From assembly GCF_013122565.1 (NCBI RefSeq), contig NZ_CP053258.1: DNA of 64,000 nt; one strand, 5' to 3'. How positions within the stretch are numbered: position 1 is the first letter of the stretch; each line of letters begins with the position of its first letter. A model generated the notes under the pieces. That model was not told the DNA's origin. It did not search any database and was given only the letters and a program-made list of their open reading frames with translations. Made by a program: the position numbers and the translations under genes. This DNA is from Escherichia coli (GTDB taxonomy: Bacteria; Pseudomonadota; Gammaproteobacteria; Enterobacterales; Enterobacteriaceae). Positions 37,189 through 42,735 of the stretch are shown piece after piece.

Positions 37189-37593
37189 ATGGATCAGGTC
37201 GTTGTTTTTCAAAAGATGTTTGAGCAAGTGAGAAAAGACCAAAACTTTTCCTGGTTTTATTCAGAATTAAAACATCACCGTATTGCACATTACATTTATT
37301 ATCTGGCTACGGATAACATCAGAATTATTACTCACGATGACACGGTTTTGTTATTAAGAGGAACCAGGAACCTGTTAAAAGTTAGTACGACCAAGAATCC
37401 TGCCAAAATAAAAGAGGCCGCATTGCTTCATATTTGCGGAAAATCTACATTTCGGGAATACTGTTCAACACTGGCAGGCGCGGGCGTTTTCCGGTGGGTT
37501 ACTGATGTTAATCATAACAAACGCAGTTACTACGCCATTGATAATACGCTTTTATATATTGAAGATGTAGAAAATAATAAACCATTAATCTAG
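37189..37593 (+). CDS. ycgX: uncharacterized protein YcgX
   Basis: 134-aa ORF; synteny between bluR and iraM. Confidence 0.8.
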   Translation: MDQVVVFQKMFEQVRKDQNFSWFYSELKHHRIAHYIYYLATDNIRIITHDDTVLLLRGTRNLLKVSTTKNPAKIKEAALLHICGKSTFREYCSTLAGAGVFRWVTDVNHNKRSYYAIDNTLLYIEDVENNKPLI

Positions 37594-37796
37594 CTAAAGT
37601 TGGAAGCTTAAGAAATGCTTCATAATTCAGTAAGGCATTAGCATAATGGAACTAAAAGTGCAGAGACTATTCCTATAGATCTTATACTGCCTTTTTATTG
37701 CCATCCATAGATGTTCAGTAGACCAATACTATAAAATTGATATTGAAATGTGCTCCCTTGCTTATTGATACATTATTTTATACGGTTAGTTTTCCT

Positions 37797-37832
37797 CTAA
37801 AAACAACGGGCGTGCTATACGCCTGTTTCAAG
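37797..37832. repeat. terminator-like hairpin, imperfect copy of the icd terminator at 39091..39119
   Basis: AAAAACAACGGGCGTGCTATACGCCTGTTTCAA vs AAAAAAACGGGCGTGTTATACGCCCGTTTCAA ~1.3 kb away. Confidence 0.6.
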
Positions 37833-37969
37833 GCTTAACTCATATGAATTTTTCTTTATTTTTCATCACGTTATAATTTTTAACCAGCAACGAATTATCC
37901 TTCACTATAAAGTTCAATAGTTGAGACCTTATCCTCATGTCATGCGTATATTCATCATAATGATCCTTA

Positions 37970-37998
37970 GACAAAAAAAGCCAACCATGATGGTTGGC
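37970..37998 (-). terminator. orphan rho-independent terminator on minus strand
   Basis: GCCAACCA-TGA-TGGTTGGC hairpin, followed on the minus strand by TTTTTTT; no annotated minus-strand gene ends here. Confidence 0.5.
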
Positions 37999-38220
37999 AA
38001 AGTGGCACAAAGTAGCATAAAGGCTATGCTTTAATTACAGGAGGTTCAGACATTTGAATGTATATCGTTTTATCTAAACAGAACTAAAACGAAGTGAATG
38101 ATTTCATTTTTTCACTAAATCTCATTTTGTTTAATCTCTGTTGAGATTCCTTGTTTTAAATTTTGCTTTATATAAACAATAGCTTTATTTTTTAAATTGA
38201 TTTTTAGGTAATATAGAAAA

Positions 38221-38475
38221 ATGCAAAATCAAGGAATGAATATCCAAAGCAAACTATACGCATATTTAAATAAATATGACACTCGTCTTACAGAAGAAAA
38301 AATTGCGATTGAGAAAGCCATTAGAGAGTTACATTTTAGCAGCGAGCATGTTGATAACAAGAAAATAATACTGAAGTTACTATCATTTTTATCATATACA
38401 GATGATGTTGTCGAAAAAGACATTATCAGAAATGCATTGGAAGTGGTTCTTCTTTTTACTTCCGATGATATTTAA
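38221..38475 (+). CDS. AriR/YmgB-family small protein (paralogue of ariR)
   Basis: 84-aa ORF; C-terminal NKKIILKLLSFLSYTDDVVEKDIIRNALEVVLLFTSDD aligns with Ari[39 protein letters not shown]; weak RBS. Confidence 0.65.
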   Translation: MQNQGMNIQSKLYAYLNKYDTRLTEEKIAIEKAIRELHFSSEHVDNKKIILKLLSFLSYTDDVVEKDIIRNALEVVLLFTSDDI

Positions 38476-38717
38476 TTGAATTCATTAATTTTATTATCAT
38501 AATTATTTTCCGGACACTACATTTTTTACTTATGTTTAATAATAACCACTGCGAATGAGGGACGCACAGGTATATTTTTCTCACACCTGTGATGTAAAAA
38601 CACGATAAAATCCAAATAAAGAATAAAATTTGCGACCCCACCAGATGGATTGCATCACACATTATTATTCAAAATATTTATCAACATCATTAATAGCCGA
38701 AGGATAAGACATAACAA

Positions 38718-39041
38718 ATGAAGTGGATAGTAATTGACACGGTAATTCAACCTACATGCGGTATATCTTTTTCAGCCATATGGGGTGATATGAAAATGAT
38801 CGTCTGGTATCAATCTACTATATTTCTCCCTCCTGGCAGTATATTTAAACCGGTTAAATCTGGTATTATCTTTAAGGATAAAGAATACCCTATTACTATT
38901 TATAACATCGCACCATTCAACAAGGATTTATGGAGTTTACTCAAAAGCAGTCAAGAGTGTCCTCCAGGAGAAAGCAAAATAACAAATAAATGTTTTCATA
39001 ATAGTTGCATTATAAAAATATGCCCATATGGGCTCAAGTAA
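38718..39041 (+). CDS. iraM: anti-adaptor protein IraM (RpoS stabiliser)
   Basis: 107-aa [15 protein letters not shown]...ICPYGLK; matches my recollection of K-12 IraM; position adjacent to icd 3' end. Confidence 0.8.
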
Positions 39042-39090
39042 AGGGTTTCATATAAATATGCTCGATATGCTATTAATAATACCTACATAA

Positions 39091-39119
39091 ATAAAAAAAC
39101 GGGCGTGTTATACGCCCGT
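39091..39119 (-). terminator. rho-independent terminator of icd
   Basis: ACGGGCG-TGTTATA-CGCCCGT hairpin followed on minus strand by TTTTTTTAT, 25 bp downstream of icd stop. Confidence 0.8.
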
Positions 39120-39143
39120 TTCAATATTTAAAACATGGAGAGA

Positions 39144-40394
39144 TTACATGTTTTCGATGATCGCGTCACCAAACTCTGAACATTTGAGCAGCTTAGCGCC
39201 TTCCATCAGACGTTCGAAGTCATAAGTTACGGTCTTCGCGTTGATTGCGCCTTCCATACCTTTAACAATCAGGTCTGCGGCTTCAGTCCAGCCCATATGG
39301 CGTAACATCATCTCTGCGGAGAGAATAATAGAGCCTGGGTTAACTTTGTCCTGACCGGCATATTTCGGCGCAGTACCGTGGGTGGCTTCAAACAGGGCGC
39401 ATTCGTCACCGATGTTTGCGCCAGGGGCGATACCAATACCACCAACCTGCGCTGCCAGGGCGTCAGAAATGTAGTCACCGTTCAGGTTCATACAGGCGAT
39501 AACGTCGTATTCAGCCGGACGTAGCAGGATCTGTTGCAGGAACGCATCAGCGATCACGTCTTTAATGACGATCTCTTTGCCGGTGTTCGGGTTTTTAACT
39601 TTCAGCCACGGGCCGCCGTCGATCAGTTCACCGCCAAACTCTTCACGCGCCAGCTGGTAGCCCCAGTCTTTAAACGCGCCTTCGGTGAACTTCATGATGT
39701 TACCTTTGTGCACCAGGGTCACAGAGTCACGATCGTTAGCAATTGCGTATTCGATCGCTGCACGAACCAGACGTTTGGTGCCTTCTTCCGAACACGGCTT
39801 AATACCGATACCGCAATGTTCCGGGAAACGAATTTTCTTCACGCCCATCTCTTCACGCAGGAATTTAATCACTTTCTCGGCGTCGGCAGAGTCAGCTTTC
39901 CATTCGATACCCGCATAAATGTCTTCCGAGTTTTCACGGAAGATAACCATATCGGTCAGTTCAGGGTGTTTAACCGGGCTTGGAGTGCCCTGATAGTAAC
40001 GTACCGGACGCAGGCAGATGTAGAGATCCAGTTCCTGACGCAGGGCAACGTTCAGAGAGCGAATACCGCCACCTACTGGAGTGGTCAGCGGGCCTTTAAT
40101 GGCAACGCGATATTCACGAATCAGATCAAGGGTTTCAGCAGGCAGCCAGACATCCTGACCATAAACCTGTGTGGATTTTTCACCGGTGTAAATTTCCATC
40201 CAGGAGATTTTACGCTCGCCTTTATAGGCTTTCTCGACTGCAGCGTCGACCACTTTCAGCATGGCTGGGGTTACATCTACACCGATTCCATCACCTTCAA
40301 TGTAAGGGATAATCGGATTTTCAGGAACGTTGAGTTTGCCGTTTTGCAGGGTGATCTTCTTGCCTTGTGCCGGAACAACTACTTTACTTTCCAT
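39144..40394 (-). CDS. icd: NADP-dependent isocitrate dehydrogenase
   Basis: 416-aa ORF matching K-12 Icd; intact 3' end with no prophage junction. Confidence 0.97.
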
Positions 40395-40854
40395 TCACCT
40401 CTCCTTCGAGCGCTACTGGTTTGCTCGTCTGCCACCACGTTGCATATGCGTTTGCGTCCTGCGATACGGATGCTTTAGAGCAATTTTTTGTTAATGATTT
40501 GTAATTGGCTTGTCAATACTACCCTATTGTTTGCCGTCATGAAAGATGCGCGTTATTAGGCTATAATGCGGCAATTCATAATCTCTGAAAATACCATGCA
40601 AAAAACTTCTTTTAGACCAAAGACAGTATTTTCCCGACCTTCAAATAAAGTATTAAATATCAATTATTTACACCAGACTTTAAGCAATAAAAAAACCACC
40701 AGAGATAACTAACAGGGTGCTATTTGGTCAAAATTTGACATTACTCGATTCAGCGACTAACTCACTTTGAGCACTATTGGGAAAATTATCAAAAGTCATG
40801 GTTGAAGCGACAAGCAACGAGTAAATTATGGCATCCACCCTTTTTGAGGTTCAC

Positions 40855-40947
40855 ATGAAACGCTTTGCACTGATAGCTGTGACACTCATTGCCTTTACTG
40901 GTTCTAGTTCTGCATCTGCTGCAACCGAAGAAATCAACTTCAAGTAA
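40855..40947 (+). CDS. 30-aa mini-ORF with signal-peptide-like sequence
   Basis: ATG 40855 with GAGG SD at 5-nt spacing; MKRFALIAVTLIAFTGSSSASA-ATEEINFK; same frame as downstream 149-aa ORF, separated by two stops. Confidence 0.35.
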   Translation: MKRFALIAVTLIAFTGSSSASAATEEINFK

Positions 40948-40980
40948 CAGAAACACTATATAACAATGGAGTGTTGAAAA

Positions 40981-41430
40981 ATGGATACTACCGAAGAACG
41001 CAATGGAACATATTTCTACAGAGGACACCCGAACCTGTCCAAAATAGAACTACTCAACGTCATATTCCTTGAAGAATTCTGTAAGGAATTGGGGATTGAT
41101 TCGGTATCAGGTGCAGCAATCTTATCTGGTCAACCTTGGCTGGGTACAAGAGCGAAGCCGGAAGGGGCAACCCTGGGAACAAGTGTTGTCTCAAAGTATG
41201 CGCGTATACTGATGAGAGATGCACGCATGCCTTTTGGTATTTCTGTTCATACAACAGTGGGTGTAAGGATGCAGAAATCTAATAAGCTTGCTGCAATTAT
41301 CGCTCGTTGGGTCCCGTGGATTGGTTGGGCTTCACTGTCGATGAGTCTTTACAGGATTTCGACTCGTACCCAGGAAAAATACAATCTGATTGCCAAACCT
41401 CAAGACCGTATTAAGTGGACTTCCTTCTAA
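40981..41430 (+). CDS. hypothetical basic protein (149 aa), first gene of an islet gene pair
   Basis: ORF from track; net positive charge; AGA/AGG codons rare in backbone; stop overlaps start of next ORF (TAATG). Confidence 0.6.
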   Translation: MDTTEERNGTYFYRGHPNLSKIELLNVIFLEEFCKELGIDSVSGAAILSGQPWLGTRAKPEGATLGTSVVSKYARILMRDARMPFGISVHTTVGVRMQKSNKLAAIIARWVPWIGWASLSMSLYRISTRTQEKYNLIAKPQDRIKWTSF

Positions 41431-41765
41431 TGGCGACAACAATCACAGACGAAGTTTTAGCACTGTTCCGTGATGAGATTCCAGGTTATCAGGATGATCA
41501 CGGGAAGGAAATTCCGTTAGAACTGGACTCTGATTTGTTCGACTATCCACGAGATGATTTAGAGGACGCTATACGGAAATACAAAGAGAGGTTTGGGATT
41601 AACCTGGATAATCTGGAATGGTCTTTGTACCTTCCGTGGGAGTCTGCACCATTGCTTCAACGATGGTTCAAGCTCAAGCGGGAAGAGGTAGAAACAACAC
41701 GTTTACCGTTAACTGTACGGATGTTTGCAGAATCAGCAGAAGCGGGAAAATGGCTGTATCAGTAG
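41430..41765 (+). CDS. hypothetical acidic protein (111 aa), second gene of an islet gene pair
   Basis: ATG 41430 overlaps upstream stop (TAATG coupling); strongly acidic (MATTITDEVLALFRDEIPGYQDDHGKEIPLELDSDLFDYPRDDLEDA); track ORF begins at in-frame ATG 41415. Confidence 0.6.
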   Translation: MATTITDEVLALFRDEIPGYQDDHGKEIPLELDSDLFDYPRDDLEDAIRKYKERFGINLDNLEWSLYLPWESAPLLQRWFKLKREEVETTRLPLTVRMFAESAEAGKWLYQ

Positions 41766-41773
41766 AATAAAAA

Positions 41774-41800
41774 AGAAGGCTGCGATGCCCTTCTTATTAC
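41774..41800 (+). terminator. weak terminator-like hairpin after the islet gene pair
   Basis: AGAAGG-CTGCGATGC-CCTTCT hairpin 9 bp after stop, followed by TATTACT (poor T-run). Confidence 0.35.
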
Positions 41801-42096
41801 TGCTGATGATGGTAGTGGTAAAGCATCATCCTGAACTTAAACAGTGAAGTGCTGTCACCCATCAGTAATACAGAAACACTATTTTCATACCAGTATTTAT
41901 TCAATTCATCAATGTAAAATGTGTTCATTGGGCCATATTTATCACCATGCAGCCACACAACCGCTGCTCACTAACCCAGGTATTGATGAAACCGCGCTGA
42001 AGAGCCTGAACCCTGAACCTCTAACGAGTACCTTCAAAGTCCAATGCAATCCGACACTGTGCTAACCTCTGCGTATAGCTCTATTTGGAATTTACC

Positions 42097-42735
42097 ATGA
42101 AATACTTTAGCGATTCTAAATCTTCTTTTAGAAAAAAACAGGTTAGTCGACTAAACTCGCAACACACCACTAAGCGTAAACCTGAAAACCAGCCCACGCG
42201 TGTGATCCTGTTCAATAAACCCTACGATGTTCTTCCGCAGTTTACCGATGAAGCCGGGCGCAAAACATTAAAAGAATTCATCCCGGTTCAGGGCGTTTAT
42301 GCAGCAGGTCGTCTTGACCGCGATAGCGAAGGGTTACTGGTGCTGACCAATAACGGCGCGTTGCAGGCGCGTTTAACCCAGCCGGGCAAACGCACCGGAA
42401 AAATCTATTATGTGCAGGTGGAAGGTATTCCCACACAAGACGCACTTGAAGCCTTGCGCAATGGCGTAACCTTAAATGATGGCCCTACCCTGCCCGCAGG
42501 CGCGGAGCTGGTTGAAGAACCCGCGTGGTTATGGCCGCGGAATCCACCAATTCGTGAACGCAAAAGTATTCCCACCAGCTGGCTGAAGATCACCTTATAT
42601 GAAGGACGTAATCGCCAGGTGCGCCGCATGACCGCCCATGTTGGTTTCCCCACGCTGCGACTAATTCGCTATGCGATGGGTGATTACTCTTTGGATAATC
42701 TTGCCAATGGCGAATGGCGAGAAGTGACAGATTAA
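42097..42735 (+). CDS. rluE: 23S rRNA pseudouridine synthase RluE
   Basis: Body matches K-12 RluE ([22 protein letters not shown]...GEWREVTD); start uncertain (ATG 42097 or TTG 42085) and N-terminus may differ from K-12. Confidence 0.85.

Follow-up and report, generated by a model that had tools for sequence, protein, structure and literature searches.

The 64,000-nucleotide stretch of Escherichia coli DNA analysed here (hereafter the window; NCBI RefSeq assembly GCF_013122565.1, contig NZ_CP053258.1) carries, to the right of bluF, bluR and ycgX, a short segment with a gene of the AriR/YmgB family and iraM, followed by icd on the opposite strand (Table 1). IraM is an anti-adaptor that stabilises RpoS under low Mg2+ and acid via PhoPQ (PMC4045071). 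An initial annotation of this DNA had proposed that two near-identical terminator hairpins bracket this segment, and that they are an attachment-site (att) type footprint or a duplicated terminator left by an old integration, with iraM in a small residual islet. This proposal is supported by an empty-site allele, by the non-dispersed distribution of the hairpin, by its carriage on phages, by remnants of icd beside the outer copy and by the genomic slot of IraM relatives. With a probability of roughly 0.7, the outer copy (T1) is an older icd terminator that was stranded, is now eroding and no longer ends icd, and the AriR-like/iraM segment is the residual islet of foreign DNA that recombined into the 3' end of icd and ends at the copy next to icd (T2). 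The G+C content of the islet is 0.30, vs 0.505 for icd and 0.484 for the window.

A repeat search of the window recovered T1 and T2 as one 44-nt repeat family, with 82% identity and a spacing of 1,293 nt. Both units consist of an A-run, a 23-nt hairpin and the sequence TTTCAA. The terminator copies read AAAACAACGGGCGTGCTATACGCCTGTTTCAA in T1 (37800-37831) and AAAAAAACGGGCGTGTTATACGCCCGTTTCAA in T2 (39093-39124); the two near-identical copies first announced do exist, 2-3 nt away from the positions then given (37797-37832 and 39091-39122), the first of them having been quoted with one extra A. The 27-nt core AACGGGCGTGYTATACGCCYGTTTCAA has two mismatches between T1 and T2, which are its sole matches on both strands of the window with up to three mismatches allowed; none of 100 shuffled sequences contained a match. 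A Hamming scan of the window for a third copy of the 45-nt unit found none (next-best site, 28/45), and an Rfam search gave no family at the gathering score (tpke11 reached 25.7 vs 43). T2 begins 20 nt past the icd stop codon and 51 nt past that of iraM, while T1 lies 207 nt downstream of ycgX. As proposed, the copies bracket both an 84-aa open reading frame (ORF) of the YmgB/AriR family (PF10798) and iraM (NF007393). We found no description of this repeat pair in the literature searched, a search that did not take in the key papers on the e14 and phage 21 att sites.

Outside the hairpin, the A-run and TTTCAA, similarity between T1 and T2 in the window is marginal (z about 2), and a Smith-Waterman alignment of 400-nt flanks gave nothing above shuffled controls, either in the window or in E. 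coli K-12. A repeat confined to its hairpin had been named as the sign of a generic terminator family. In the window the repeat is nearly so confined; once other alleles are compared it is not, as described below.

T2 is predicted to be the working intrinsic terminator of icd. On the icd strand it folds into an 11-bp stem (-20.4 kcal/mol, z=-5.4) followed by UUUUUUU and is called by a terminator scan; this stem-loop with its U-tract closely follows the stop codon of icd, which is encoded on that strand. A species scan with AACGGSCGTGYYAYACGYCYGTT as the query, using one genome per species, returned seven loci (Escherichia albertii, E. whittamii, Escherichia sp. E1V33, three Citrobacter genomes and one metagenome-assembled genome). 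Each has one copy, always directly past the icd stop codon, which agrees with the initial assignment of this hairpin to icd and is not the pattern of a terminator family found genome-wide. Wherever one of these loci aligns across T2, its homology to the window ends at 39090-39093, in the outer A-run, and the same holds for the e14 side of K-12. The position of the hairpin after icd and this shared end of homology identify T2 as the terminator conserved after icd; variable DNA repeatedly begins at the outer edge of T2.

T1 has the appearance of a decayed version of the same module. Its hairpin carries two changes in the window and five in K-12, where the fold is at shuffle level (z=-2.1 and -0.4). 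In the window, T1 folds at -13.1 kcal/mol on the plus strand (z=-3.3) and, with a broken stem, at -11.3 kcal/mol on the minus strand. The minus strand, the only one on which the terminator scan calls T1, retains a clean stem of 5 bp followed by CGUUGUUUUU, and the plus strand has a poor U-tract (UUUCAAGG). On neither strand does T1 stand just downstream of a stop codon, since the minus strand has no gene there and the plus strand only ycgX. Some weak termination of ycgX transcripts at T1 may persist.

Remnants of the icd end beside T1 are best seen in other alleles. The right flank of T1 in the window resembles the icd 3' untranslated region (3'UTR) marginally (z about 2), and K-12 T1 retains TTTCAATACTTAACGCACATGTA, about 20 nt of this 3'UTR, with z between 4.4 and 6.8 against the 3'UTR of T2 and of phage 21-type phages. 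In a third allele, hereafter the L027-type allele, T1 is followed by the 3'UTR and by TTAACATATTCTTGAT, whose icd counterpart ATTACATATTCTTGAT comprises the stop codon and about 13 nt of coding sequence (local score of 19 vs a shuffle mean of 10.4, standard deviation 1.4; anchored z 4.2-7.0). The K-12 and L027-type alleles therefore trace the duplicated module to the 3' end of its target gene icd. The empty allele of the APEC O1 type reads ...TTTCAATATTTAACACATGTAGAGATTACAT, and K-12 T1 matches it as far as ACATGTA and no further, so that the left junction of the islet falls 9-10 nt before the former icd stop codon; this junction is not the same in all allele types. Two candidates for a longer icd remnant in the window were rejected: an icdC-like pseudogene beside T1, where the 400-nt flank comparison stayed at shuffle level, and a minus-strand ORF of 56 aa (37840-38010), which has no family match and no likeness to the Icd C-terminus.

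The distribution of alleles was assessed in 5,426 complete E. coli genomes. The iraM gene is present in 3,941 of them (73%). An empty site occurs in 1,036 (19%), with the order ycgX-ymgL, one hairpin, and icd or icdC; its left flank is that of T1, its right flank is icd, and the whole of the inter-repeat DNA is missing. The locus thus has direct repeats around an insert as well as an insert-free allele with a single copy of the repeat. APEC O1 is an example of the empty allele; both it and strain CFT073 are B2 strains. CFT073 has been reported to lack iraM (PMC4045071).

Only 10 genomes have a window-like allele with an intact AriR-like gene. Most genomes with iraM, K-12 included, lack the 432 nt that correspond to 38246-38677, and with them the AriR-like gene and the upstream region proper to iraM; the window islet is probably the form that did not undergo this deletion. 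The L027-type allele, found through a 75% relative of the AriR-like protein, occurs in 17-19 genomes and has the order ycgX, T1, icd remnant, 275 nt, AriR-like gene (75% identical), iraM (about 73% identical) and a terminator of its own, followed by a gene for a TrkH-family transporter, a gene for a 455-aa protein, an e14-type arm, the hairpin and icd; T2 is absent. Between the window and the L027-type allele the islet is 75% identical, vs 92-95% for the flanks. A stretch of 330 nt unique to the L027 allele gave no phage match.

The 3' end of icd had been described as a classic prophage integration site, and phage 21, phage 4A7 and an E. albertii prophage all carry an icd 3' end with the hairpin, and e14 one with a variant of it. 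It is established that e14 and phage 21 integrate in icd and supply its 3' end. In a phage search with the left part of the islet, only the 44-nt repeat matched, in phage 21 (AF017626) and 10 other lambdoid phage records. AF017626 is annotated with a partial icd coding sequence and int, the integrase gene. Phage 21 and 4A7 both have int, arm repeats, the identical hairpin and an icd 3' fragment of 153-165 nt; in 4A7 the order is xis, int, GTTTTGGGGAA repeats, hairpin, 153-nt icd fragment and sitABCD cargo. In the E. albertii type strain an int fragment of the prophage ends 42 nt from the hairpin, and in K-12 e14 a variant hairpin, AACGGGAGCGTTACGCTCCCGTT, stands beside the icd 3' end and is preceded by TTTTGATAAC repeats. 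Because such phages bring their own icd 3' end and terminator, each integration adds a second terminator and strands the resident one.

Comparison with known systems shows where the islet follows them and where it departs. The e14 insertion, with its icd/icdC duplication (Hill, Gray and Brody 1989; Brody and Hill 1988), is likewise at the icd 3' end, supplies a replacement 3' end and terminator, and displaces the resident ones so that direct repeats surround the insert. The islet differs in that its stranded copy has no icd coding part and keeps only the terminator and traces of 3'UTR, in that its insert is 1.25 kb long with no int, xis or phage structural genes, and in that the event predates e14. 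The attP module of phage 21-type elements (AF017626; 4A7, ev207, Perceval; prophage NC-SV) shares the identical 23-nt hairpin AACGGGCGTGTTATACGCCCGTT and the 3'UTR TTTCAATATTTAAC, placed between int and the phage-borne icd fragment; the GTTTTGGGGAA arm repeats to the left of its hairpin are found at neither T1 nor T2 of the window. The scar at attR of prophage DLP12, a 47-bp duplicate of the argU 3' end, also persists at the far edge of a decayed prophage, although that prophage is for the most part still there and had a tRNA gene as its target. Duplication of the 3' end of a target gene by phage integration is a textbook mechanism, and the islet would be a prophage scar of an ordinary kind.

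Gene order in K-12 is ycgX, T1, iraM, T2, icdC (the attR of e14), mcrA and the rest of e14. As icdC adjoins T2, iraM lies outside e14, not between its attL and attR, and the window has iraM and an intact icd with no e14. The iraM gene of K-12 has been placed "on the e14 prophage" (Hryckowian et al. 2014, PMC4045071), which is contradicted by this gene order.

The iraM gene unit is the only phage-related content of the islet. Window IraM is 93-94% identical to E. coli IraM and matches NF007393 with 169.9 bits (cutoff of 121) over residues 1-107. More distant relatives (61-68% identity) occur in Stx2 phages and in lambdoid prophages of E. coli and E. albertii, and all those whose context was examined occupy the slot from Q/stx to nanS/holin and are read in the direction opposite to the late genes. 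Likeness of the islet DNA to phages is confined to 38614-39056, which is 68% identical to the iraM-like unit downstream of stx2B in phages 2851 and phi330; upstream of iraM, the 44-nt hairpin was the sole match in the phage collection. Like iraL of the CFT073 potB island and the Stx2-phage iraM-like genes (Hryckowian et al. 2014, PMC4045071), which share PF11183 and 61-68% identity, iraM is a single gene with its own upstream region and is variably present among strains. Those copies stand inside recognisable prophages, in the Q-to-lysis slot, whereas iraM of the window is a stand-alone remnant abutting the icd terminator. PF10798 matches the 84-aa protein from model position 2 to 59 (of 59); identity to the AriR encoded elsewhere in the window is 38%, and no NCBIfam model matches. 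A lambdoid prophage of E. albertii carries a 69% relative of YcgX on the opposite strand, in the slot from Rz to Nu1. Mapped onto a phage 21-type prophage at icd, genes in these two slots would be oriented as ycgX and iraM are here, a weak support since chance gives this fit about 1 time in 4.

These observations could be accounted for as follows. The ancestral order would have been ycgX-ymgL-terminator-icd. Incoming DNA, equipped with a copy of the icd 3' end, the 3'UTR and the terminator, would have recombined into the 3' end of icd, in the way of e14 and phage 21-type phages, and the resident terminator, 3'UTR and icd tail would have been pushed away from icd to become T1. Deletions would then have shrunk the incoming element to about 1.25 kb, leaving the AriR-family gene and iraM and ending at the incoming terminator, T2. 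Delivery by a lambdoid phage, the order of the deletions and the ancestral status of the empty allele are the parts of this account that we infer. With regard to direction of change, a Citrobacter genome (L035) has the order pdeG-like gene, gene for a 90-aa protein, 70% YcgX homolog, putative insertion sequence (IS) 200-like transposase gene, terminator variant AACGGGAACCTCTCGGCTCCCGTT, icd, rluE, nudJ and mnmA, with no iraM and with gene order kept on both sides. Together with the icd remnants beside T1, this order favours ycgX-terminator-icd as the ancestral state, into which the islet was inserted. In E. albertii, E. whittamii and E1V33 the DNA beyond the hairpin (an integrase fragment, e14-type arms and a gene for a YebC/PmpR-family regulator) is unrelated and carries no information on polarity. 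Clustering of the last 165 nt of icd, done to separate native from incoming 3' ends, gave a 90-100% mosaic that did not tell the two apart.

Several results weigh against this account. No icd coding remnant is detectable beside T1 in the window or in K-12, so an event of the e14/21 type, whose core lies 163-165 nt into icd, needs a later deletion ending beside the terminator. No integrase, att core or phage structural gene lies between T1 and T2, and no genome was found with an intact prophage there. No relative of the AriR-like gene came up by tblastn in 50,697 phage records or among the prophage loci retrieved. Finally, the species scan missed the E. coli representative, and its recall is therefore incomplete.

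The short remnants could also mean that T1 and T2 are a true attL/attR pair, with a crossover at the terminator, 3'UTR and last icd codons and not some 165 nt upstream at the e14/21 core; in that case the att core region would be the 45-70-nt repeat, and only the last few codons would have been exchanged for those of the element. Indeed, even the longest T1 remnant extends no more than about 13 nt beyond the stop codon, a longer icdC-like piece is missing from both the K-12/window-type and the L027-type alleles (no 165-nt icdC remnant stands by T1), and the 7-nt repeat ATATGCT, paired to the left of T2, offers candidate arm-type sites. We regard this version as unlikely: the searches found neither an integrase nor a phage with such a core, the fragment in every icd-linked phage module recovered is the longer one of 153-165 nt, the left junction varies between allele types, and later deletions explain the short remnants equally well. 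Somewhat less doubtful, while still clearly the lesser option, is that the two-copy islet state is ancestral in E. coli and that the empty allele arose by a later deletion between T1 and T2. In keeping with repeat-mediated deletion, the junction of the empty allele lies within the repeat, and the hairpin of this allele is of the undecayed T2 type; the frequency of iraM (73% of genomes) and two deeply diverged islet alleles, which imply an old islet, point the same way. However, the Citrobacter genome has ycgX beside icd without iraM in an otherwise conserved order, the homology for recombination is only 23-34 nt and imperfect, and the empty allele of the APEC O1 type agrees with T1 (ACATGTA) and not T2 (ACATGGA) at one diagnostic 3'UTR position, a weak indication. 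An earlier event would still be needed for the duplication itself.

It is improbable that T1 is a working ycgX-ymgL terminator, produced by local, non-mobile duplication of the icd terminator or conversion from it, with the genes in between added independently. Its distance from ycgX and the plus-strand fold would suit such a role, and a C-to-T change preserves a G-U pair on that strand. Yet the plus-strand U-tract is poor, the scan calls T1 on the minus strand only, and K-12 T1 has decayed to shuffle level with its five changes; moreover, remnants of the icd 3'UTR and stop codon have no role in such a terminator, and the empty allele shows the same flank abutting icd. Chance likeness, or membership of a generic genome-wide terminator or repetitive extragenic palindromic (REP)-like family, has a negligible probability. 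Hairpins with a T-run are common, and the similarity within the window is mostly hairpin, but shuffled sequences gave no match, the loop and flanks are common to both copies, there are two copies in 64 kb, all seven species-scan matches are at icd, and no Rfam family reached threshold.

If T1 is a stranded icd terminator, it provides a concrete account of the variable presence of iraM in E. coli, with the gene in a bounded islet of 0.8-1.25 kb at a phage integration hotspot. A broader scenario is more doubtful: the icd 3' end would be a layered record of serial lambdoid integrations, each leaving a terminator module, iraM would have entered E. coli as the second gene of an AriR-like/iraM pair behind a PhoP-box promoter, and the K-12 arrangement would derive from it by the single 432-nt deletion. 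The layers in K-12 may be T1, then T2 with icdC, then the terminator borne by e14. The ycgX-ymgL pair might be an older layer still, as the left flank of T1 resembles the e14 arm flank with its TTTTGATAAC repeats: the K-12 form matches at 32/45 positions (P 0.003 from shuffles, 0.02 from the local background), and the window form gives P 0.000 and 0.027, respectively. This likeness is suggestive only, and from sequence comparison ycgX-ymgL-T1 could be the int-side end of an older e14-like element.

As to the promoter, TGTTTAATCTCTGTTGA is the sole match to KGTTKA-N5-KGTTKA in the window (0.09 expected) and may act as a PhoP box; the AriR-like gene and iraM may accordingly form one PhoP-controlled unit, both being predictions from the motif. 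The 432-nt deletion of K-12 brings iraM directly behind the PhoP-box-like region, where the box reads TGTTTAACATCCATTGA (K-12 locus L001, 2531-2547), and creates from the AriR-like start a 22-codon ORF, MQNQEINILMNHIKYRGIRHNK (2629-2697), whose TGA overlaps the iraM ATG as ATGA. The rare window form with its AriR-family gene is useful for asking how PhoP control of iraM arose.

Table 1. Features between bluF and icd, in window coordinates.
Feature	Position	Strand	Basis or remark
bluF	34743-36032	+	window gene left of islet
bluR	36237-36968	+	window gene left of islet
ycgX (DUF1398), 134 aa, resident gene left of T1	37189-37593	+	annotated ycgX in E. coli matches
ymgL homolog, stop after 10 codons	37646-37678	+	translation MELKVQRLFL*
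T1 left flank, common to empty-site allele	37760-37799		continuous with empty allele
T1, probable decayed icd terminator module: A-run, hairpin 37805-37827, TTTCAA, 3'UTR traces	37800-37843		repeat and folding
Islet, 1,249 nt between repeats, 30% G+C	37844-39092		missing as a block in empty-site genomes
Orphan terminator-like hairpin	37980-37998	-	GCCAACCATCATGGTTGGC then TTTTTTT
ymgK homolog, 14 codons, overlaps orphan hairpin	37990-38034	+	translation MVGKVAQSSIKAML*
PhoP-box-like direct repeat TGTTTAATCTCTGTTGA	38128-38144	+	77 nt upstream of AriR-like ATG
AriR/YmgB-family gene, 84 aa	38221-38475	+	PF10798, E=1.3e-15
iraM accessory-gene unit: about 100 nt upstream and iraM	38614-39056	+	DNA match to phage iraM-like units
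iraM	38718-39041	+	NCBIfam NF007393
T2, predicted icd terminator, hairpin 39098-39120, common to convergent iraM and icd	39093-39136		folding and conservation
icd, 416 aa, intact, no prophage inside	39144-40394	-	ORF and genome comparison

Two of the small genes in Table 1 have K-12 counterparts detected as proteins, the 36-aa YmgL and the small protein YmgK (MFSKLAQSSIKAMF). The orphan hairpin overlapping the ymgK homolog points in the same direction as the icd terminator, but no gene on the minus strand precedes it. The L027 allele conserves it, whereas in K-12 it has decayed, and it may once have terminated a gene since lost. The ATATGCT copies close to the left of T2 stand at 39056-39062 and 39065-39071, 9 nt from start to start. 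The pair is also present in K-12 and partly in the L027 allele, and could be part of the iraM 3'UTR or leftover recombinase-binding repeats.

Other DNA was also found in the interval between ycgX and icd. In the L027-type genomes about 4.8 kb lie between iraM and icd (L027 6870-11683; also L024 and L025), where the 455-aa gene product belongs to no known family and an e14-type TTTTGATAA arm stands next to the icd terminator; L025 has an IS21-type element inserted in this stretch. The Citrobacter sp. locus L035 (GCA_030332495.1) has, at 6405-7206, a candidate transposase gene of the IS200/IS605 type, recognised by eye, between the ycgX homolog and icd, and its icd terminator keeps the outer stem AACGGG...CCCGTT with a different interior. 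Copies of IS200C are present in the same interval of E. coli genome H21. The ycgX-icd spot thus draws several kinds of mobile DNA. A 76% YcgX homolog in Escherichia sp. E10V10 and its relatives (L030-L032, 7001-7405) lies between genes of the TusA family and for an acetyltransferase, near fliC-fliDST, and is neither at icd nor in a recognisable prophage, indicating that DUF1398 genes have become established in several places on the chromosome.

On the far side of icd, the 5' end of rluE in the window contains a 1.5-kb insertion (40617-42117) that K-12, E. albertii, E. whittamii and Citrobacter lack. The flanking alignments overlap by 15 nt of K-12 sequence, and CTTCTTTTAGA is found at both junctions. 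The inserted DNA (42% G+C) codes for an STM2901-family protein (40981-41430; NF045926, 156.8 bits vs a cutoff of 110) and has an overlapping ORF of 116 aa (41415-41765). It appears to provide a new start of rluE (ATGAAATACTTTAGCGATTCTAAATCTTCTTTTAGA...), and looks like a second small islet with the same strategy of supplying the gene end.

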